Of a stretch of DNA of 64,000 nt, positions 2,512 to 59,744 are shown piece by piece. The notes beneath the pieces were generated by a model. That model made no database searches. It saw only the letters and a program-made list of their open reading frames with translations, and had not been told where the DNA came from. Origin of the DNA: Candidatus Nomurabacteria bacterium (GTDB lineage: Bacteria > Patescibacteriota > Minisyncoccia > Phycocordibacterales > UBA9973); NCBI GenBank assembly GCA_943350875.1, contig CALRAL010000001.1, forward strand, positions 68,992 to 132,991. The letters are read 5' to 3'. The position numbers and the translations under genes are program-made. Every line of letters begins with the position of its first letter. The stretch's first letter is position 1.

Positions 2512-2897
2512 ATGGAAAATAACTTAAAAACAAAAACTAGAATTGCTGGGATAATTATTCAAAATAGGAAACTTTTACTTTTAAAGGGTAAAGGATATGA
2601 AGAACTTTGGACTCCAGGAGGAAAATTAGAGGATGGTGAAAGTGATGAAAAATGTTTAGAGAGAGTTTCATGAGGAAATCGGGGTTCAATTAGTTGAGTC
2701 AAAGTTTTTATCATCCAGAAAAAGAAATGATTGAACGAGTATATATTTGTAAAATAGAAGGAGAATTAAAACCAGCCATGGAGATTGAAAGTGTTATCTG
2801 GTTTACAAAAGAAGATTTTAAAAATCACACATTTCCAATGATTACTCATACAGAAAAAGAACTCATTCCAGATTTAATAAAAGAGGGAATTTGGTAA
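2512..2897 (+). pseudogene. NUDIX hydrolase split over three reading frames (two frameshifts)
   Basis: Frame 1 (ATG 2512) reads MENNLKTKTRIAGIIIQNRKLLLLKGKGYEELWTPGGKLEDGESDEKCLERVS* and stops at 2671-2673. The rest of the Nudix box (REFHEEIGVQLVESKF) continues in the +1 frame across a GAGAGAG tract at 2659-2665. The C-terminal part (2694-2897) is in the third frame after an A-run at ~2722-2731. Confidence 0.55.
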
Positions 2898-2940
2898 GTA
2901 TCTCTTATTGATTATTAATTAACTGATTTGTACTATAAAA

Positions 2941-2972
2941 CTATGCGGTCGTCTTGTTTTATAGTATAATAG
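2941..2972 (+). promoter_or_regulatory. Promoter-like element with conserved TGCGnTCGTCTT box and TAGTATAAT -10
   Basis: ctatgcggtcgtcttgttttatagtataatag immediately upstream of the 2977 start; a near copy lies at 3563-3594. Confidence 0.45.
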
Positions 2973-2976
2973 AATT

Positions 2977-3522
2977 ATGCATTCTAAAATAGATTTTAAA
3001 AAAATTATTTTAATGACACTAGCAACGGCTGGAATTTTAGCTATTGCAGTTCTTGCTCCGAATGTGCTTCAGGTGTTAAAACCATTCTTAAAAAATAAGA
3101 AAAAATACAACCTTAAATATTATTTGAGTCAAAAAACACAAAAACTTATAAAAGAAGGTTTAATTAAAATAGATATAGAAAACGGTAAGCAATATATTTC
3201 ATTAACCAAGATGGGTGAGAGAAAATTACTATATTACCAAATCACAGAAAAAAAGAAAAACGTGCAATGGGATGGTAAATGGAGAGCAGTTGTTTTCGAT
3301 GTGTGGGAAAATACAAGAAACAAAAGAAATACTTTACGGAACGAAATAAAAAATTTTGGTTTTATTCAACTCCAACGTAGTGTCTGGATTTATCCTTATG
3401 AATGTGCAAGTTTTATTGAGCTTCTTAAAATTGATCTGTCTTTCGGGAAAAACATAAGATATATGATAGTAGAAAAATTGGATTACGATGAAAATTTGAG
3501 AAAGTTTTTTAAACTAAAGTAG
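2977..3522 (+). CDS. PaaX-like winged-helix transcriptional regulator (paralog of 55334-55870)
   Basis: Shares WDGxWRxVxxDxxExxRxxRxxLRxxLKxxGFxxLQxSVWIxPY with the other copy; this resembles the PaaX C-terminal domain. Confidence 0.55.
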   Translation: MHSKIDFKKIILMTLATAGILAIAVLAPNVLQVLKPFLKNKKKYNLKYYLSQKTQKLIKEGLIKIDIENGKQYISLTKMGERKLLYYQITEKKKNVQWDGKWRAVVFDVWENTRNKRNTLRNEIKNFGFIQLQRSVWIYPYECASFIELLKIDLSFGKNIRYMIVEKLDYDENLRKFFKLK

Positions 3523-3562
3523 TTTATAAAATATAAAGCATATTACATGTGCTATAAAGTAA

Positions 3563-3594
3563 TGCGTTCGTCTTATTTTGTAGTATGTGTGGTT
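3563..3594 (+). promoter_or_regulatory. Second copy of the TGCGnTCGTCTT-TTTGTAGTAT promoter/operator motif
   Basis: aatgcgttcgtcttattttgtagtatgtgtgg, upstream of the 3625 CDS. Confidence 0.4.
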
Positions 3595-3624
3595 TTGTGG
3601 TAATATATAGAGTATAAAAATGAT

Positions 3625-4149
3625 ATGGAAAATGGGGATAAAAAAATTATTCTTTTTGTATGTAAGGGCAATATTCATCGTTCTGCTATAGCAGAACAAG
3701 TTTTCAAAAAAATTTTAAAGGAGAATCAATTGGATGACAAAATCGAAGTTATTTCGAGGGGCATTCAAGGTTCTGTTTATTCAAAACCAACATTATTTAA
3801 AAATATTACACAATACGATAAAGTATGGGAAACGGTAGAACCGTCATTGAAGGAATTTAATATTGATATTACTAAACATAAAGCGAAATCTATTACTAAA
3901 GAAATTGCAGATAAAGCTAGTATTATTATTACTTTTGATAAAGTGATTTTTTCAGATCATGAAGATGCACTTATTAGGCAATTTTCACACTTACAATCTA
4001 AAATACATTTTTTGTCAGAATTTGAAGGGTCAAAAGAAGAAATTTCAGACTGTGAAGGAATGAATTTGGAGCAACACAGAAAAATTACAAAAAAGATTTT
4101 TGATATTTTAAATCAACACTGGGAAAAAATAGTTGAATATGTTACTTAA
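3625..4149 (+). CDS. Low-molecular-weight protein tyrosine phosphatase / ArsC-like (LMWPc)
   Basis: N-terminal CX5R P-loop: ILFVCKGNIHRSAIAE. Confidence 0.75.
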   Translation: MENGDKKIILFVCKGNIHRSAIAEQVFKKILKENQLDDKIEVISRGIQGSVYSKPTLFKNITQYDKVWETVEPSLKEFNIDITKHKAKSITKEIADKASIIITFDKVIFSDHEDALIRQFSHLQSKIHFLSEFEGSKEEISDCEGMNLEQHRKITKKIFDILNQHWEKIVEYVT

Positions 4150-4158
4150 AAAACTTTT

Positions 4159-5445
4159 ATGAAACTAAAAGAAATAATTAAAAAATTAAAGATAAAGAGG
4201 AGAATGATTGCGAGATTGGCAGCGATGCATTTTTATGGCAATCCTTCTTTAAAATTAAAGATTGTTGGCGTGACGGGGACAAATGGTAAAACTACAACTG
4301 CTACACTTTTGTACAAGATAGCCACAGCTTTGGGCTATAGGGCAGGGCTTATTGGCACTGTTGAGAATATAATTGCGGGAGAAAAGATATTGTCAGATGA
4401 CAATGCTCCGCAGACCACTCCCGACCCAATTTTCTTAAATAAATTACTTTCAAAGATGGTTGAGAAAGGATGTGAATATGTCTTTATGGAAGTCTCAAGT
4501 CATGCTATGGATCAAAACAGGGTGGCAGGGATAAACTTTACTGGAGGGATTTTTACAAATCTAACTCATGATCATTTGGATTATCATAAAAGTCTAGAGA
4601 ATTACTTTTTAGCAAAAAAGAAATTCTTCCAGATGTTGCCAAGTAGTGCTTTTGCTTTATCAAATGTTGATGATGAACATGGAGAGATGATGTTAGAAGG
4701 AATAAAGGCAAAGAAATTCCTTTATGGATTTAAGAAGGATGCTGATTTTAAGGGGGAAATTTTGAAACTTGATTTTAATGGGTTGGAAATGAATTTTAAT
4801 GGGGAAGTAATAAAAACTAAACTATTGGGTAAATTTAATGCCTATAATTTACTTTCAGTCTGGAGTGCTTGTAAACTACTTGGTTTTGATATGCCTGCCC
4901 GCAATGCTTTCAGTATAGCTGATGCAGGTGGGGAAAAAGTAAATAAAATTTTAGAAAATATAGAACCTCCAAGAGGCCGCTTCGACCATTTTCTTTCAAA
5001 AAGTGGAGTATTGGTAATTGTGGATTATGCTCACACTCCAGATGCGTTAGAGAAAATACTTTTGACTATAAAAGATATAAAAACAGAAAATGGATTATTG
5101 ATTTCTCTATTTGGTTGCGGAGGGGACAGAGATCCATTAAAAAGGAGGATTATGGGTAAAATTGGAGCAAATTTATCAGATATCGCTATTTTTACATCTG
5201 ACAATCCTCGTAGCGAGAACCCAGAGGACATCATTGCCGAGATGAAAACTGATTTATCTATGAATGATTCTAGAAAAGTTAAAATAATTGTGGATAGGCA
5301 TGAAGCTATAAAAGAGGCAGTAAAGGTAGCAAAACCTGGAGATATTATATTATGTGCTGGCAAAGGTCATGAGACCTATCAAGAGATAAAAGGCGCGAAG
5401 TATCATTTTAACGATATGGAAGAATTTAAGAAAGCGTATAATTAA
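4159..5445 (+). CDS. murE: UDP-MurNAc-tripeptide synthetase MurE (compact). It carries an in-frame palindromic insert.
   Basis: GVTGTNGKTTT Mur ligase P-loop, DYAHTPDAL and DNPRSENP (MurE signature). Confidence 0.85.
   Translation: MKLKEIIKKLKIKRRMIARLAAMHFYGNPSLKLKIVGVTGTNGKTTTATLLYKIATALGYRAGLIGTVENIIAGEKILSDDNAPQTTPDPIFLNKLLSKMVEKGCEYVFMEVSSHAMDQNRVAGINFTGGIFTNLTHDHLDYHKSLENYFLAKKKFFQMLPSSAFALSNVDDEHGEMMLEGIKAKKFLYGFKKDADFKGEILKLDFNGLEMNFNGEVIKTKLLGKFNAYNLLSVWSACKLLGFDMPARNAFSIADAGGEKVNKILENIEPPRGRFDHFLSKSGVLVIVDYAHTPDALEKILLTIKDIKTENGLLISLFGCGGDRDPLKRRIMGKIGANLSDIAIFTSDNPRSENPEDIIAEMKTDLSMNDSRKVKIIVDRHEAIKEAVKVAKPGDIILCAGKGHETYQEIKGAKYHFNDMEEFKKAYN
4894..4934 (+). repeat. GC-rich imperfect-palindrome element, family A, in frame inside murE. 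It encodes PARNAFSIADAGGE.
   Basis: cctgcccgcaatgctttcagtatagctgatgcaggtgggg; near-identical copies at 8477, 52615 and 63471. Confidence 0.8.
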
Positions 5446-5448
5446 ACT

Positions 5449-7122
5449 ATGCAAACAGAAACCAGGCAATGCAAAAAATGCAATCGAAGTTTTGTTCTAG
5501 AGCAAGACGATTTTTCTTTTTACGAAAAGATGAAAGTTCCTGTACCGAATATCTGCCCAGACTGTCGTTTTAAAATGAGGGCCATTTTTAGAAATGAACG
5601 TACTTTATATAATAGGACCTGTAATTTATGCAATCGCTCTATTATTACAATGTATAATCCGAATTCTCCTTACACTGTCTATTGTAATGACTGTTGGATT
5701 TCTGATAAATGGGATCCATATTCTTACGCTATGGATTATGATTCATCTAAATCTTTTTTTGAACAATTAAAAGAACTTATTATAAAAGTTCCAAAATCTG
5801 CCACTTATAGTAGTATTTCTGTTGGGGTGAATATCAACAGTGAATATGCTAATTTTGCAGGAGGTAATAAAGATGGGTATTTGATTTTTAATTGTGGACC
5901 AAATAATGAAAACATAGCTTATTCCCGCGGTGTAATAAAAAGTCGAGATGTTTTTGATGTTTATTATGCAGATGAAATAGAAAATACTTATGAAGGAGTT
6001 AGTGTTCATAAAAGTAATGGAATAGCTTGGGGTCAAAATGTATCCGATTGTATAGATTCACGTTTTATTTTGAATTGTTCAGGATGTCAGAATTGTTTTG
6101 GTTGTGTAAACTTAAGGCATAAATCTTATCATTTTTTTAATGAACCTCTTGAAAGAAATGAATGGTTAAAACGTGTATCAGAAATTTCTGGTAGTTTTAA
6201 AAAGACAGAAGAAATGAAAAAAAAGTTTACAGAATTCTCTCTTAAATTTCCATATCGAAGTAGTAATAACCTAAAAGTCACTAATTGTGAGGGAGATTAT
6301 ATTTTTGAATCAAAGAATTGTTATAAATGTTTTGAACTTTCTTTTTGTGAAGACATACGACATTCTTTTTCAGTAAAACGTGGTAAAGATTGTACTGATA
6401 TGATAGGTCATTGTCGCAGTTCAGAACTTCTATATAATGGAGTTGGAGTTGGGGCTGGCTCAAGGAATGTTATATGTTCATGGTGGGTTGAAAGTTCCCA
6501 AGATGTTCAATATTCATTTGCCACTCGTCAAAGTAATGATTGTGTAGGATGTGATGGTATAAAAAATGGTTCTTTTGTAATTCTAAATAAAAAATATACC
6601 AAAGAAGAATATCAAAAAATAAAAAATAATATTACAAAGGAGTTAAAAGATAAAAATATCTACGGTGATTTTTTCCCTACTGAACTTTCTTTCTTTGCTT
6701 ACAATGAAACAATTGGGCAAGATAATATGCCTATGACTAAAGAAGAAACAATCAAACAAGGTTTTCGTTGGGAAGATAATATTCAAAAAACAAAAAGAAA
6801 AGAAACCTTAAAGCCAGAGGAAATTCCAGATAATATAAGAGATGTATCAGATAATATTTTAAATGAAGTATTAGTTTGCATTAAATGTTCTAGAAATTAT
6901 CGGTTAATTAAACGCGAACTTGAATTTTACAAAAAAATGCTTATTCCTATCCCTAGAGAATGTTGGAATTGCCGTTTTACAAATCGCATAATTCGACGCG
7001 GGTCTTATAAATTCTTTGATCGTAAATGTTCAAATTGTAATAAGGATATACATACTAATTTGACGGAAAAGGTGGCACCAATAGTATATTGCGAGAAATG
7101 TTATCAGCAGGAAGTGATATAA
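5449..7122 (+). CDS. Large Cys-rich protein with tandem zinc-ribbon pairs at both termini (paralog 1 of 3)
   Basis: N-terminus CKKC...FYEKMKVPVPNICPDCR...LYNRTCNLC...VYCNDCW. C-terminus CIKC...FYKKMLIPIPRECWNCR...CSNC...IVYCEKCYQQEV. Central Cys-rich pseudo-repeats (NCSGCQNCFGCVNL...). Paralogs at 53207 and 59745. Confidence 0.8.
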   Translation: MQTETRQCKKCNRSFVLEQDDFSFYEKMKVPVPNICPDCRFKMRAIFRNERTLYNRTCNLCNRSIITMYNPNSPYTVYCNDCWISDKWDPYSYAMDYDSSKSFFEQLKELIIKVPKSATYSSISVGVNINSEYANFAGGNKDGYLIFNCGPNNENIAYSRGVIKSRDVFDVYYADEIENTYEGVSVHKSNGIAWGQNVSDCIDSRFILNCSGCQNCFGCVNLRHKSYHFFNEPLERNEWLKRVSEISGSFKKTEEMKKKFTEFSLKFPYRSSNNLKVTNCEGDYIFESKNCYKCFELSFCEDIRHSFSVKRGKDCTDMIGHCRSSELLYNGVGVGAGSRNVICSWWVESSQDVQYSFATRQSNDCVGCDGIKNGSFVILNKKYTKEEYQKIKNNITKELKDKNIYGDFFPTELSFFAYNETIGQDNMPMTKEETIKQGFRWEDNIQKTKRKETLKPEEIPDNIRDVSDNILNEVLVCIKCSRNYRLIKRELEFYKKMLIPIPRECWNCRFTNRIIRRGSYKFFDRKCSNCNKDIHTNLTEKVAPIVYCEKCYQQEVI

Positions 7123-17822: not shown

Positions 17823-17865
17823 TTGATAACTTTTATGAGGAAATACTACTTTGTAGTATAATTAC
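17823..17865 (+). promoter_or_regulatory. Promoter (TTGATA ... TTTGTAGTATAAT) for the methyltransferase gene
   Basis: ttgataacttttatgaggaaatactactttgtagtataat; the TTGTAGTATAAT -10 type also recurs at 2957 and 3580. Confidence 0.45.
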
Positions 17866-17868
17866 TGC

Positions 17869-18393
17869 ATGTTTACCGAGCCAGTAAAAAATCTAAAAGC
17901 TTTTGGTCTGCGTGACGATATGGTCGTGGCGGATTTGGGAGCAGGGACTGGATTTTATACTATTCCGGCTGGGTTTATGGTGCCTCGAGGCAAAGTCTAT
18001 GCTGTCGAAATACAGAAAGATTATTTAGTGACTCTAAAGAATAAAGTGGTGGAGGCAAATTTACATAATGTGGAGATTTTTTGGGGCAATATTGAAAAAC
18101 TCGGGGGCACAAAAATAAGGGACAAAGTAGTAGATGCAGTCATCGCTTCTAACATACTTTTTCAAGTCGTAGATAAAGAAAAATTTATCGAAGAAATAAA
18201 TAGAATTTTAAAACCAGGTGGCAGAGTTCTACTTATAGATTGGTCTTCTTGGATATCTATAGTGAGTGCTGGTTCTAAAAAAAGTGTTTCAAAAGACGAA
18301 GCTAGAAAAATGTTTGAAGAAAAGGGTTTTATTTTTGAGCGAGAAATTAACACTGGGGCGCATCACTATGGTATAATATTTAGTAAGTTGTAA
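17869..18393 (+). CDS. Class I SAM-dependent methyltransferase
   Basis: Motif I VADLGAGTGFYT; ILKPGGRVLLID. Confidence 0.75.
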   Translation: MFTEPVKNLKAFGLRDDMVVADLGAGTGFYTIPAGFMVPRGKVYAVEIQKDYLVTLKNKVVEANLHNVEIFWGNIEKLGGTKIRDKVVDAVIASNILFQVVDKEKFIEEINRILKPGGRVLLIDWSSWISIVSAGSKKSVSKDEARKMFEEKGFIFEREINTGAHHYGIIFSKL

Positions 18394-26255: not shown

Positions 26256-27449
26256 ATGGAAAAATCAAAGAAAATATACTTAGATTATGCCTCTGGAGTA
26301 TCTCCTAATCCGAGTTCTATACATACCTTGGGTGTTAGTTCAAAAAGCAAGTTAGAGAATGCGCGCAAAATTGTGGCCAATTCTTTAGAGGCTAGACCAT
26401 TGGAAATAATCTTTACCAGCGGAGGGACTGAAAGCAACAACTTGGCCATACAAGGAATTGTCGGGGAAAGGACAGACCTTAAGAATTCAAAAAGGTCTGT
26501 CCTTAAGGAGACAATTCCACATATCATAACTACAAACATAGAACATGCTTCTGTTTTAGAAACATTTAAGATGTTAGAAAAAAGAAAATTAGCTCAAATG
26601 ACGATAGTACCAGTCGAGCAAAATGGGATAGTAGATCCAAAAAAAATCAAAAAAGCTATCAAGAAAAATACCATTTTAATTTCTGTCATGTATGCGAACA
26701 ATGAAATAGGTACAATCCAGCCAATAAAAGAAATTGCAAAAGAAATCAGGCATTTTAAAAAAATGAACAGGCAAGACCTGTTAAATTTTCCATTTTTCCA
26801 TACTGATGCAGTGCAGGCTGTAAATTATTTAGATATAAATGTAGAAAAGCTAGGAGTGGATTTGTTATCTATCTCTGGTTCAAAAATAGAAGGAGCCGCG
26901 CCAAAGGACGGGCAAGCTGGTAGAGTAGGGGTGCTTTATAAAAGAAAAAATGTGCCACTTGCACCTATTTTCTATGGAGGAGATCAAGAAAGTGGGTTAC
27001 GTCCTGGAACAGAGCATTTATCAGAGATTATTAAATTTGTTCAAGCTTTTGAATTCTCACAAAAAATAAAAGAAAAAGAAAACAAAAGATTAACAAAATT
27101 GCGAGATTATTTTATTGAAAAATTATTAAGTTTAAATTTTAAAATTAAATTAAATGGTAATTTAGGAAAAAGATTGCCAAATAACATAAATATTACAATT
27201 CCAAATATACCAAGTGATTTGTTAGTGATAGAACTTTCAGCTAGGGGTGTTATGGCTAGCGCAAAAAGTGCTTGTAAGTCTGGTGATGGGAAAGGTTCTC
27301 ATGTTATAAAAGCTATTGATAATAGTATAAAAGAAACAGACGGTTCCCTAAGGTTTTCATTTGGTAGAGCTACAAGTAAAGCCGATATTGACTACACTCT
27401 AAGGACTTTATCTAAAATTTTGACTAAACTGAAAAGGTGGTATAATTAG
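26256..27449 (+). CDS. Class V aminotransferase / cysteine-desulfurase-like (IscS/NifS family), with insertion near the PLP-lysine loop
   Basis: IYLDYASG...FTSGGTESNNLAIQGI...LLSISGSKIEG. Confidence 0.6.
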   Translation: MEKSKKIYLDYASGVSPNPSSIHTLGVSSKSKLENARKIVANSLEARPLEIIFTSGGTESNNLAIQGIVGERTDLKNSKRSVLKETIPHIITTNIEHASVLETFKMLEKRKLAQMTIVPVEQNGIVDPKKIKKAIKKNTILISVMYANNEIGTIQPIKEIAKEIRHFKKMNRQDLLNFPFFHTDAVQAVNYLDINVEKLGVDLLSISGSKIEGAAPKDGQAGRVGVLYKRKNVPLAPIFYGGDQESGLRPGTEHLSEIIKFVQAFEFSQKIKEKENKRLTKLRDYFIEKLLSLNFKIKLNGNLGKRLPNNINITIPNIPSDLLVIELSARGVMASAKSACKSGDGKGSHVIKAIDNSIKETDGSLRFSFGRATSKADIDYTLRTLSKILTKLKRWYN

Positions 27450-27452
27450 ATT

Positions 27453-38252: not shown

Positions 38253-39146
38253 ATGGAAGGATTTTTCTCATCTAAAAACAGTTTCTTGTATATACTTGGT
38301 ATTTTGTTTTTCTTGTTGATTTTTAACTCTTTATTTTTTAATGCTCCAAGATATTTCCCAATAGGGGATATTGTAAATATACAAGAAGGTTCAAGTCTCC
38401 ACCGTATTTCTAAATATCTAAAAGACGAGAAGATAATTGGTTCTAGAATGGCTTTTGAAGCTTTTGTGATTATGTTTGGGGGGGAGAAACATATAGTTCT
38501 AGGAGACTATTTATTTGAAAAGAAAATGCCTGTTTTTGATATAGCTTCGCGTCTTACACATGGATATCACAACTTAGCACCAGTCAAAGTGACTATCCCT
38601 GAGGGTTCAAATAACAAAGAAATAGCTGATATTTTTGGCACTAAATTGTTAAAATTCAATAAAATTAAATTTTTGACTGAGATAAAAGATAAAGAGGGCT
38701 ATCTTTTTCCCGATACTTACTTTTTTTCTACTACAGACACAGAAAAAGAAGTTATAAAAGTTATGAAGGATAATTTTAATAAAAAAGTTCCTCTTGTTTT
38801 TTCTACAATAAACATTAGTGATGTAAAGAAAAAAGATATCATAATAATGGCCTCGATAATAGAACGTGAAGCGGAAGGCGATAATGACAGAGCTATAATT
38901 TCTGGAATTCTTTGGAAAAGATTTAAAAAAGGGATGTTGTTACAAGTAGATGCTGTACCCGAGACATATAAAACAAAAGGATTACCAAAAAATCCTATAT
39001 CTAACCCTGGGCTCGAAGCCATAGAAGCGTCTATTCATCCAAAAGTCTCATCTTATTTTTTCTACTTACATGATAAAGCTGGTGTAGCTCATTATGCTGT
39101 CACTTTTAATGAACATGTTTCAAATAAATTAAAATACTTAAAATGA
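38253..39146 (+). CDS. mltG: Endolytic murein transglycosylase MltG (YceG-like)
   Basis: N-terminal TM; LLQVDAVPETYKTKGLPKNPISNPGLEAIEASIHP. Confidence 0.75.
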   Translation: MEGFFSSKNSFLYILGILFFLLIFNSLFFNAPRYFPIGDIVNIQEGSSLHRISKYLKDEKIIGSRMAFEAFVIMFGGEKHIVLGDYLFEKKMPVFDIASRLTHGYHNLAPVKVTIPEGSNNKEIADIFGTKLLKFNKIKFLTEIKDKEGYLFPDTYFFSTTDTEKEVIKVMKDNFNKKVPLVFSTINISDVKKKDIIIMASIIEREAEGDNDRAIISGILWKRFKKGMLLQVDAVPETYKTKGLPKNPISNPGLEAIEASIHPKVSSYFFYLHDKAGVAHYAVTFNEHVSNKLKYLK

Positions 39147-40342
39147 AAATAAAAAAAACTGTTTTTGTGGGGATGTCAGGGGGAGTAGATAGTGCTGTGT
39201 CAGCAACTTTACTTAAAGAACAAGGGTATGATGTAGTGGGTGTTTTCATCCGTACTTGGCATCCAGAATTTTTAAAATGCAATGAAGAAGAGGAGAGGCT
39301 AGATGCTATGCGTGTGGCAGCATTTTTAGATATTCCTTTTTTGACTTTTGATTTTGAGAAAGTGTACAAGAAAGAAGTGGCTGATTATATGATTTCTGAA
39401 TATAAGGCTGGTAGGACTCCGAATCCAGATGTGATGTGCAACAAAGAAGTGAAATTCGGCGCATTTCTCAAAAAAGTTGTTTCGATGGGTGCGGATTATG
39501 TGGCGACTGGGCATTATGCACAAACCAATAAATACACAGGGTTCCCCTGTGTTACACAGGGGAACCCTGTGTATTTAAACCTCGGGAAGCTCAAAATAGA
39601 AAGGGAAAACTTTGGTTTGTTAAAAGGAAATGATGTTACAAAAGATCAGAGTTATTTTCTTTGGATTTTAAAACAAGAACAATTAAAAAAGATTTTGTTT
39701 CCAGTTGGACATTTAAAGAAAACAGAAGTTCGTAAATTAGCCAAGAAATTAAATTTACCTGTGGCAGAGAAAAAGGATAGTCAAGGGATTTGTTTTTTGG
39801 GAGCTATTGATTTGAAAGAATTTTTAAAACATTACATAAAAGAAAAAAAAGGTGAGGTATCTAATACAGAAGGTGAGAAGATTGGATTTCATGACGGGGT
39901 AGTTTTTAATACTTTAGGAGAAAGACATGGTTTTACTATTACCAAGAAAAGTCCTAATGATGGGCCTTATTATGTAGTAGGTAAAGACTTAAAGAAGAAT
40001 ATTTTATACGTGAGTCAAGACAAAAACCATCTTGCAAAGAGTACGGATATTTTTTTACTAAAAAATTCCTCGTGCTCACGCCAGTCGCTCTCGCAAGTCT
40101 CTTTGCAAGATGGTTTTTGTCTTTGTTTAAGAGGCACTAATTGGATTTCAAAGATCCCAGAATTAAATAAAGATTACACTGCACAGATTCGTTATCATGG
40201 TAGTTTCTTACCTTGTAGAATAAAAGTTCTAAAAGGCGACAAAGCTGAGATTCACTTTAAAGAAAATGTGTTAGTTGCCCCTGGTCAGTCTTGTGTAGTT
40301 TATGATAAAGATGTTGTTCTTGGGGGAGGAATAGTTGTATAA
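39143..40342 (+). CDS. mnmA: tRNA 2-thiouridylase MnmA (contains an in-frame palindromic insert)
   Basis: VFVGMSGGVDSAVSA PP-loop, GHYAQ, KDQSYFL. Confidence 0.88.
   Translation: MKIKKTVFVGMSGGVDSAVSATLLKEQGYDVVGVFIRTWHPEFLKCNEEEERLDAMRVAAFLDIPFLTFDFEKVYKKEVADYMISEYKAGRTPNPDVMCNKEVKFGAFLKKVVSMGADYVATGHYAQTNKYTGFPCVTQGNPVYLNLGKLKIERENFGLLKGNDVTKDQSYFLWILKQEQLKKILFPVGHLKKTEVRKLAKKLNLPVAEKKDSQGICFLGAIDLKEFLKHYIKEKKGEVSNTEGEKIGFHDGVVFNTLGERHGFTITKKSPNDGPYYVVGKDLKKNILYVSQDKNHLAKSTDIFLLKNSSCSRQSLSQVSLQDGFCLCLRGTNWISKIPELNKDYTAQIRYHGSFLPCRIKVLKGDKAEIHFKENVLVAPGQSCVVYDKDVVLGGGIVV
39533..39575 (+). repeat. 43-nt near-perfect palindrome, family B, in frame inside mnmA. It encodes YTGFPCVTQGNPVY.
   Basis: ATACACAGGGTTCCCCTGTGT-T-ACACAGGGGAACCCTGTGTAT. 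Confidence 0.85.
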
Positions 40343-44409: not shown

Positions 44410-45810
44410 ATGCCTGATACAGACATCAAAAATACAGAGGCACAAACTCTCTATAATCAAGAAATATATAAATATGGACGAGAGCTTGCTTCTGTCAACA
44501 AGACACTTACTCTTTTACGAGAGTTGTACAAAATAACTCTGCTTTCACTTGATCCTGTTGCGGTAGCGACACAAGTTTCAATATTAATGCGCGATAGCCT
44601 ACATCTTGAAATGGTGGGACTTTTTCTTTTTACTCACAAAGAAGACACATTTTTGCCGCTTGCTTTCGCAAAATCTGATCGTTTAATTTCAGTTTTACGT
44701 AAACTTGATTTTTTGTTTAGTGATATAACAATTACAGGGGTTACAAAACGTTCTTTTTTCAACAGTCTTTTTGAAGGAGAGTTTGTGGTCACAAGAAATA
44801 TTTCTGATATTTGGGGCGGGCTTGTAAATGATAATGATTTAAAAACTATTACAGAATCAGCCAATTTAAAAACAACTATATTATATCCATTACTTACAGA
44901 AGAAAAAATTATTGGTGTGATCCTTTTGAACTATAATTCGTCTTATGATCAGATTTCCGCATCTGAAAAGGATTCTTTAAAATCCTTTTCAGATGCTATA
45001 GCTGTTTCACTTGATAAGTCATATATGTACAAAGAGCTTACGATGGCCAATAAAAATCTGATGGCTGTCAACAAAGAAATGGAATTAGCCAATAAACAAT
45101 TAAAAACAGTTGACGAAACAAAATCTAGTATTTTGTCTTTCGCTCAACATTATTTACAGAATCCAATAGAAAATATTGTTATGGCATCTTCTATGCTTGC
45201 TGATGGATCATTTGGAGATAAAATTGAAGATATAAAAAAGGCTTCGGTACGAATGTTTGAATCTGCCAGGCATTTATCTCTGACAGTAAAAATGTGGTTG
45301 AAAGCCCTTGATTTCGAAGAAAATAGAGTCGAATACAAAATAGCAGATTTAGATTTATATAACCTAATATCTCAAATAGTAAAAGATTGGACTTTAATTG
45401 CGAATGATAGAGGTATTGCTTTTTCCTTTGAGACTGATAATCATCCACCATATACTATCAAAGCAGATCAAACATGGATACATGATGTAATAATAAACTT
45501 AATAGATAATGCTTTTAAAATGACTGAAAAAGGATTTATTAAGTTAAAATTAGAGAAAATTGGTATTGAAAAAGTAAGGTTTTCAATTACTGATTCAGGA
45601 GTGGGTATCGATATGGAAACATTATCAAAACTATTCCAGAAATTTGAACGTGGACATGAGGGTTGGCGAAACAATGTTGAAGGCACAGGATTAGGATTAT
45701 ATATTTCTAAGAAGATTGTGGAAGAAGGCCATCATGGCAAAATCTGGGCAGAATCTGAGGGGCATGGCAAAGGAGCCACTTTTTATGTTGAGCTTCCAAT
45801 TGTGTTATAA
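44410..45810 (+). CDS. Cytoplasmic GAF-domain sensor histidine kinase; no response regulator adjacent
   Basis: HATPase_c: GTGLGLYISKKIVEEGHHGKIWAESEGHGKGATFYVELP. Confidence 0.8.
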   Translation: MPDTDIKNTEAQTLYNQEIYKYGRELASVNKTLTLLRELYKITLLSLDPVAVATQVSILMRDSLHLEMVGLFLFTHKEDTFLPLAFAKSDRLISVLRKLDFLFSDITITGVTKRSFFNSLFEGEFVVTRNISDIWGGLVNDNDLKTITESANLKTTILYPLLTEEKIIGVILLNYNSSYDQISASEKDSLKSFSDAIAVSLDKSYMYKELTMANKNLMAVNKEMELANKQLKTVDETKSSILSFAQHYLQNPIENIVMASSMLADGSFGDKIEDIKKASVRMFESARHLSLTVKMWLKALDFEENRVEYKIADLDLYNLISQIVKDWTLIANDRGIAFSFETDNHPPYTIKADQTWIHDVIINLIDNAFKMTEKGFIKLKLEKIGIEKVRFSITDSGVGIDMETLSKLFQKFERGHEGWRNNVEGTGLGLYISKKIVEEGHHGKIWAESEGHGKGATFYVELPIVL

Positions 45811-45817
45811 TTAAGTT

Positions 45818-59721: not shown

Positions 59722-59744
59722 GGTAATTTTGTTATAATAAACTT

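Follow-up and report, generated by a model that had tools for sequence, protein, structure and literature searches.

What do two almost identical DNA segments do on either side of a small gene for a PaaX-like protein in a candidate-phylum bacterium? We analysed a stretch of 64,000 nucleotides (64 kb, hereafter the window) of contig CALRAL010000001.1 from Candidatus Nomurabacteria bacterium. An earlier examination of the letters alone (the sequence-only reading) had noticed a conserved box in front of this gene and again in front of the following phosphatase gene, and had proposed a candidate autoregulatory operator. Each box is in fact the centre and the right (3′) arm of a palindrome or hairpin of 40–50 bp, and this element travels with the gene, which we call mini-PaaX. 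We are highly confident that the element is real, specific and functional. Its best explanation, with a probability of roughly 0.55, is a PaaX-type operator pair for autorepression that probably also forms hairpins on the + strand. We infer that mini-PaaX is the binding partner, duplex DNA the target and repression the effect. The features of the locus are as follows.

2924–2973, + strand: copy 1, upstream palindrome/hairpin; left arm TACTATAAAAC at 2930–2940, centre CGGTCG at 2946–2951, right arm GTTTTATAGTA at 2956–2966
2965–2970, + strand: −10 hexamer TATAAT of the regulator promoter, 6 nt before the ATG at 2977, overlapping the 3′ end of the right arm; leaderless mRNA predicted
2977–3522, + strand: mini-PaaX gene, 181 amino acids (aa); hydrophobic N-terminus, recognition helix and wing resembling a winged helix-turn-helix (wHTH), Cas2-like (PaaX_M) domain
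3543–3592, + strand: copy 2, downstream palindrome/hairpin; left arm ending in TGCTATAAAGTAATG, centre CGTTCG at 3565–3570, right arm beginning with TCTTATTTTGTAGTA
3578–3606, + strand: predicted promoter of the next gene; −35 TTGTAG at 3578–3583 inside the right arm, 17-nt spacer, extended −10 TGgTAATAT at 3598–3606
3625–4149, + strand: low-molecular-weight (LMW) phosphotyrosine phosphatase (PTP)/ArsC-fold gene; Pfam LMWPc, E 5.9e-19; NCBIfam matches weak and below cut-off

Paired palindromes around a mini-PaaX gene

The near-identical segments described earlier are indeed present. As a 25-nt degenerate pattern (ATGCGKTCGTCTTRTTTTRTAGTAT) the box occurs exactly at 2943–2967 and 3562–3586 on the + strand, with 22 of 25 bases identical between the copies, and no third match exists in the 64 kb even at 3 mismatches (0 expected from 100 shuffles). 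Similarly, exact matches to the 12-mer TGCGNTCGTCTT are confined to 2944 and 3563 in the window, and its 2-mismatch variants (14 against 7.8 ± 2.8 expected) stay at chance level. The intervals first given for the two copies were 3 nt out of register, as 2941 begins 3 nt before TGCG and 3563 lies on TGCG. Alignment of the two intergenic regions extends the likeness 5′ beyond the box (32 of 41 bases are common to 2926–2966 and 3545–3585). This added 5′ stretch and the 3′ part of the box are reverse complements of each other, a relation that the sequence-only reading had missed.

The left arms are TACTATAAAAC in copy 1 and TGCTATAAAGT in copy 2. Copy 1 is laid out as TACTATAAAAC - TATG CGGTCG TCTT - GTTTTATAGTA, and an inverted-repeat search recovers it as repeat I21 with arms 2928–2941 and 2956–2969. 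In copy 2 the arms TGCTATAAAGT and ATTTTGTAGTA pair only by means of three G–U wobbles and one compensated change from C–G to U–A relative to copy 1. Folded as RNA, copy 1 reaches −14.2 kcal/mol on the + strand (z −3.2) and −8.9 on the − strand; for copy 2 the values are −22.1 kcal/mol (z −6.7) and −1.6 (z 0). The covariance model R1, built from 90 copies (unique 50-mers) in the related loci described below and run on the window with filters off, finds copy 1 with 56.1 bits (E 5e-8) and copy 2 with 44.2 bits, both on the + strand, and no other copies in the window. It has no match on the − strand of copy 2, and its next-best match in the window, 25 bits, is an ordinary terminator.

With Rfam 15, tRNAs alone reach the gathering score in the window and the best match within 2850–3700 has an E-value of 0.88, far below gathering; a known RNA family was rejected as the identity of the palindromes for this lack of a match. 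A generic promoter element was rejected as well, given two exact boxes, relaxed variants at chance and no third copy by the covariance model. TRTAGTAT by itself is ordinary, with 6 sites in the window against 4.3 expected. The locus-specific part is not TGCGnTCGTCTT as such, as the sequence-only reading had proposed: it is a palindrome of about 40 bp with an invariant CG..CG centre and A4/T4 tracts.

Both copies stand in register with promoter hexamers of the sigma-70 type, which, like the start sites, were assigned by consensus. TAGTAT, previously taken for the −10 sequence, has this role in neither copy: upstream the −10 is TATAAT at 2965–2970, and the downstream arm supplies the −35 TTGTAG. 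Of 49 unique upstream copies, 27 have a −10 of the upstream type at the same distance from the centre. With the centre of the upstream palindrome near −28 and a predicted leaderless start, the hairpin falls outside the gene's own predicted mRNA. Among the unique downstream copies, TTGnnn-N16–18-TAnnnT begins 7 nt past the centre in 25 of 52, and 5–12 nt past it in 27 of 52. In the window there is also a second −10-like sequence, TATAAA at 3613–3618, 6 nt before the ATG of the next gene.

The assignment of the two genes to a PaaX-like regulator and an LMW phosphatase agrees with the profile searches: the LMWPc match is given above, and the product of 2977–3522 matches Pfam PF20803 PaaX_M (E 1.5e-18, 67 bits against a cut-off of 24, residues 96–172). 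An AlphaFold2 (AF2) model with a predicted local distance difference test score (pLDDT) of 77 has E. coli PaaX (8a39) as its best PDB match; the 176 matched columns span the Cas2-like domain as well as the winged-helix region, and the next structural matches are small wHTH proteins and Cas2. The N-terminal model of PaaX gives no Pfam match in mini-PaaX, and the recognition helix and wing give weak profile matches to Sso10a and AspA. The PaaX_C effector (phenylacetyl-CoA) domain is absent, the protein ending after the Cas2-like domain at 181 aa, and the full-length PaaX equivalog TIGR02277 scores 26.1 bits against a cut-off of 264.55. We therefore use the name mini-PaaX for a protein with a PaaX-like fold, no PaaX_C and a score far below the equivalog cut-off. 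There are no paa catabolic genes among its neighbours, which are SecA, DUF1653, Nudix, LMW-PTP and Mur ligases. Lacking the effector domain, the paa context and a sufficient equivalog score, it does not belong to PaaX proper. Regarding Cas2, the model TIGR01573 gives 22 bits against a cut-off of 24.5 and PADLOC Cas2 matches are weak; the loci examined show no cas1 or other cas gene around the regulator, and no CRISPR-repeat Rfam family reaches the gathering score in the window.

Conservation and joint evolution of the two copies

More than 120 relatives of mini-PaaX at 46–85% identity come from metagenome-assembled genomes (MAGs) of Paceibacteria/Parcubacteria, and the family of ~190-aa proteins comprises 365 clusters at E ≤ 1e-30 and 2757 at E ≤ 1e-10. 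The comparative set consisted of 5 genome loci from a single-protein search, 10 loci around chosen orthologues, 80 metagenome loci obtained with a protein-alignment query and 4 loci of one short orthologue; about 90 related loci were examined in total and are referred to by number. Our first palindrome pattern missed distant lineages with other centres or bulged arms, which were picked up by a repeat search.

In nearly all loci with enough flanking sequence the palindrome is present on both flanks of the gene, with the centre CG[G/A][T/C]CG. Conservation reaches down to about 36–40% protein identity, including L093 with another centre. Among the 90 unique 50-mers the centre is CGGTCG in 46, CGATCG in 22, CGGCCG in 18, CGACCG in 2 and something else in 2. 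The search for further occurrences that the sequence-only reading had proposed gave only the two copies in the window and, in related loci, matches that nearly always flank the gene. Specifically, a pattern scan of 540 kb of related loci placed 100 of 108 palindromes with a CGNNCG centre directly beside the gene, and in 223 kb of related loci all significant R1 matches flank it except a third copy in L067 and a weak intragenic match in L100. The same reading had named a generic element, or one not conserved in orthologous loci, as what would speak against it; the element is exclusive to the gene and conserved, so neither was found.

The third copy in L067 (4369–4418, 48 bits) lies just upstream of a MurE-like gene, after an unannotated 272-aa open reading frame (ORF), and the regulated set may accordingly be larger in some genomes. 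In L100 the related palindrome AACAAAATTTCACGATCGCAAAATTTTGTT at 758–789 lies within the RNase HII coding region and may be either chance or an intragenic site. L072 carries two short paralogues (107 aa, Cas2-like domain only) on one contig, at 2977–3300 and 5511–5834. CGATCG palindromes stand on both sides of the second; at the first, the upstream copy is clear but the downstream copy weak. Gene and sites thus seem to be duplicated together.

More distant relatives show how far the element can change. In L089 the centre of the palindrome is ACGGCCGT. L093, at ~38% identity, has a different perfect 36-bp palindrome, TACGCGCTAATTCAGCCATGGCTGAATTAGCGCGTA, with the centre GCCATGGC, again on both flanks (2910–2945 and 3536–3571). 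Its upstream copy lies between TATAAT and the ATG and would be transcribed there. In L084 and L088 the outer inverted repeats and the CGGCCG centre are kept while the inner spacers are not complementary, and the downstream copy of L084 is inverted; this pattern is operator-like. The upstream copy also persists beside a divergent upstream gene (L079, L083, L086), and must therefore be more than a terminator for a co-directional upstream gene. In L003 (~3880–4000) and L006 (9884–10003) the upstream site is apparently split by an insertion of ~70 bp that duplicates the CGATCG centre; AAAACTCAA, which forms the left arm in the distal copy, is complementary to TTGAGTTTT, the right arm in the proximal one. 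L092 and L095 have a short tandem repeat, (GGGTAGAT)n, beyond the downstream palindrome, ~60–110 nt past the gene.

Pairing between the arms was evaluated in an ungapped alignment of the 90 copies over 19 pairs, with 500 shuffles and slid-partner controls. Standard pairs occupy 81.2% of cells as compared to 65.1% in shuffles (0 of 500 reach the observed value), there are 303 double-change cells against 117 expected, and sliding the partner by 1–3 columns lowers pairing to 33–51%. Invariant sequence is confined to the CG..CG centre and an A4 or T4 tract 6–9 nt on either side of it; positions between the tracts and the centre, as well as the outer arms, are variable yet complementary. Perfect palindromes reach up to ~23 bp per arm.

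The two copies of a genome evolve together. On average they are 70% identical, while orthologous copies from genomes with less than 60% protein identity share 47–48%, no better than cross comparisons, and 244 of 261 such comparisons show greater similarity within a genome than between orthologous copies. Such concerted evolution would be expected of two sites that track one drifting trans-factor; gene conversion is the alternative.

Duplex operator, hairpin, terminator or recombination site

We favour the operator pair because the element is exclusive to the gene and conserved on both of its flanks, its arms covary, its copies evolve in concert and stand in fixed register with promoter hexamers, it persists beside divergent genes, L084 and L088 keep it without inner complementarity, and the protein has the PaaX fold. 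According to a review, PaaX of E. coli binds TGATTC-N27-GAATCA, a site of ~39 bp, and represses its own promoter by hindering RNA polymerase; the Cas2-like domain of PaaX-type proteins has been described as a dimerisation motif (PMC9493321). Mini-PaaX resembles PaaX of E. coli and Pseudomonas (PDB 8a39, 3l09) in having a predicted winged-helix region followed by a Cas2-like domain, and its predicted site resembles the PaaX operator in being ~40 bp long, with inverted repeats set far apart and lying over the promoter of the regulator itself: the arms 2930–2940 and 2956–2966 surround the centre 2946–2951 and overlap TATAAT at 2965–2970. The differences are equally clear. On the protein side, PaaX_C and nearby paa genes are missing and the N-terminus is strongly hydrophobic. 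On the DNA side, the palindromic symmetry is near-perfect over the whole site, which has A4/T4 tracts and a CG..CG centre that does not vary; a second copy follows the gene, and orthologues without the wHTH keep the sites. An arrangement of near-perfect palindromes on both flanks is not a described feature of PaaX operators. Paired operators such as gal OE/OI and lac O1/O2, which act by looping, likewise consist of two near-identical sites a few hundred bp apart, one of them over the promoter; here the second site differs in lying beyond the 3′ end of the regulator gene, over another promoter.

Under the operator explanation a mini-PaaX dimer would bind both palindromes on duplex DNA in the manner of PaaX. 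The upstream site, centred ~28 bp before the predicted leaderless start, would cover the −10, and its occupation would silence the promoter of the regulator gene (autorepression). The second, downstream site would cover the −35 of the next promoter and place whatever gene follows, here the LMW phosphatase, under the same control; this second site may also help the two sites to act together. Read-through transcripts would fold as + strand hairpins, and these probably double as terminator or insulator in very short intergenic regions.

Several observations weigh against a plain operator. Arm mismatches are strand-biased, with 187 G·T to 46 A·C; of 90 copies, 67 fold better on the + strand and 18 on the − strand; and the centre reads GGTC rather than GACC by 46:2. 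The G·T bias is strongest in downstream copies (114:18), where the −35 TTG explains part of it, and upstream copies are biased too. Base composition was rejected as its source (GC skew +0.23 and AT skew +0.10 give ~1.3:1 against the observed ~4:1), and a transcription- or replication-linked mutation bias may lie behind it. The strand-biased wobble pairs suggest that the + strand hairpin also matters. The copies within genomes differ by 32 fully compensated double changes, which one protein reading fixed half-sites would not need. On the protein side, residues 10–28 are transmembrane-like (Kyte–Doolittle 2.36) and AF2 places them as helices 1–2 of the wHTH at low confidence (pLDDT 56–73 for these two helices), so that, judging from the model and the hydrophobic N-terminus, the DNA-binding domain may be incomplete. 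Moreover, short orthologues (107–111 aa) that have lost the hydrophobic and wHTH region sit in the same SecA ... Mur synteny; both palindromes are retained there in unchanged register, and their inner palindrome, AAAATTTCACGATCGTGAAATTTT, is strongly conserved. No full-length paralogue occurs within ~8 kb of these short orthologues. Finally, downstream genes are unrelated between lineages. The proposal that the element is a binding site for the neighbouring wHTH regulator holds in part: the conservation, the PaaX-like fold, the exclusivity and the co-evolving copies speak for it, and the wHTH-less orthologues that keep both sites speak against the wHTH as the part that binds. Arm length (median 13 in wHTH-less lineages versus 19) is a noisy measure in A/T-rich DNA and indicates a trend only; as proof that the wHTH reads the outer arms it was rejected. 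The N-terminus (residues 1–38, window 2977–3090) is homologous to non-hydrophobic helices in distant relatives.

The main rival takes up several of these objections. In it the Cas2-like domain would recognise or cut a folded single strand, a hairpin with a CGRYCG apex formed either by + strand RNA or by extruded DNA. Termination, processing or stability at hairpins bracketing the ORF, rather than classical operator binding, would control the regulator and its neighbours. The wHTH would then be an accessory that some lineages have lost. The strand asymmetry (−22.1 against −1.6 in copy 2, 67 of 90 copies, 187:46), pairing kept at nearly every arm position, the 32 compensated differences that set the copies within a genome apart, the inner palindrome AAAATTTCACGATCGTGAAATTTT of the wHTH-less orthologues and the use of the Cas2 fold by both RNA- and DNA-binding proteins all speak for it. 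We nevertheless regard it as unlikely. The upstream hairpin precedes the predicted leaderless start and is outside the gene's own mRNA, the element persists in divergent intergenic regions, and the inner spacers of L084 and L088 are non-complementary, with one L084 copy inverted. A self-complementary centre (GATC, GGCC or GGTC), present in 86 of 90 copies, is not needed by a hairpin loop, and concerted evolution of the arm sequence implies that sequence is read and not shape only. Template-switch correction of quasi-palindromes can produce compensated changes without selection, which also counts against the hairpin. Ordinary intrinsic (bidirectional) terminators or insulators with restart promoters and no dedicated protein, their centre kept by descent and gene conversion, seem still less probable to us. 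The element shares with bidirectional intrinsic terminators a + strand hairpin, A-tract and T-tract flanks (A-tract, stem-loop, T-tract; textbook-like in L005, AAAAAAGTGCGGTCGCACTTTTTT, and L074, AAAAATTCACGATCGTGAATTTTTT) and a location in short intergenic regions at gene ends, each copy being followed by a promoter-like element; the concentration of G–U bias in downstream copies (114:18) fits as well. But a terminator scan has no site at 2924–2973 or 3543–3592, the inner stems are weak in the clade of this window, and no U-run follows copy 1. After copy 1 comes AAUAGAAUU, and after copy 2 UUUUGUGG, only past a long A/U-rich stem, so that the G+C-rich stem with U-run of an intrinsic terminator is not seen here, while some distant lineages do have it. 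Other terminator-like hairpins in the window have unrelated apices and at most 25 bits with R1. In addition, the apex is invariant over very divergent lineages and occurs only beside this gene family, including duplicated paralogues, it keeps a fixed register with the downstream promoter hexamers, and the element is present in divergent promoter regions.

A further reading is that a small cassette, mobile or excisable, has its ends or recombination sites here (Xer/dif-like, attC-like or REP-like): each element has a 6-bp centre between two arms, and the elements on the two flanks lie ~620 bp apart and share one orientation. Gene and both sites duplicate together in L072, and strand-specific G·T pairs are reminiscent of sites recognised as single-stranded DNA. 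Against this stand the stable synteny SecA ... gene ... Mur ligase in many lineages, and the symmetric centres (CGATCG, CGGCCG), which have no directionality; nor did the gene calls and ORF lists around the regulator in the examined loci show a recombinase or HUH gene. The attC core follows the rule RYYYAAC/GTTRRRY, which the arms, checked by eye, do not fit; this is a lead and not a test. Phage or mobile origin was rejected: a scan of viral contigs with ATGCGGTCGTCTTNTTTT gave 4 chance matches, terminator-like or coding and without a PaaX_M gene. We hold a recombination function to be very improbable. In sum, the operator pair stands ahead of its main rival, the hairpin, and terminators and recombination sites fit worse.

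Resemblance to Cas2 and VapD-type ferredoxin-fold proteins concerns the C-terminal domain, which matches Cas2 in fold and, weakly, in sequence; the protein differs from them in that no cas gene is seen near the regulator in the loci examined and the Cas2 models remain below cut-off.

Genomic context and meaning for candidate-phyla bacteria

The upstream neighbour of the gene across loci is mostly SecA or Nudix. Downstream neighbours vary and include LMW-PTP, DUF1653, DUF2000, a weak thioredoxin-like match, RecO, an LCAT-like protein and proteins without assignment; the LMW phosphatase follows the regulator in this genome only. In the window the Nudix hydrolase gene (2512–2897) is split by two frameshifts, from frame 0 to +1 in the Nudix box near 2665 and from +1 to +2 near 2700, and represents either a pseudogene or an assembly error; it is whole in L006 and L100. 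A perfect 49-bp palindrome of another sequence, TAAATACACAGGGTTCCCCTGTGT-A-ACACAGGGGAACCCTGTGTATTTA, lies at 39529–39577 within the long ORF 39143–40342.

Regarding promoters elsewhere in the window, TAnnnT (often TGnTATAAT) ends 5–7 nt before the start codon in at least 15 genes, with examples at 5434–5448, 17855–17868, 27438–27452, 45803–45817 and 59730–59744, and Shine–Dalgarno-like motifs are rare. This genome thus appears to use leaderless-type promoters widely. The −10-type site reported earlier at 17852 is genuine as well and lies 6 nt upstream of a methyltransferase-domain ORF (17869–18393).

Gene regulation in Patescibacteria, or the candidate phyla radiation (CPR), is almost unstudied, and these bacteria encode few recognisable transcription factors. 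Among the papers covered by our literature search, none connects PaaX-like proteins with Patescibacteria. The mini-PaaX family is large and in Paceibacteria is set in a conserved SecA ... Mur-ligase neighbourhood. The present analysis precisely defines a family-wide cis element, with a covariance model, a predicted promoter geometry and mutational targets, and thereby offers a first candidate regulator–site pair in these organisms that is directly testable in vitro and needs no cultivation. The question it poses is whether the element acts as duplex operator or as hairpin, and whether it is met by the wHTH or by the Cas2-like domain. Recognition of a hairpin would explain why wHTH-less orthologues have both sites, why G·U pairs favour the + strand and why changes in the arms are compensated. 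If true, it would mean a regulatory, non-CRISPR role for the Cas2 fold in a family of thousands of proteins in candidate-phyla bacteria.

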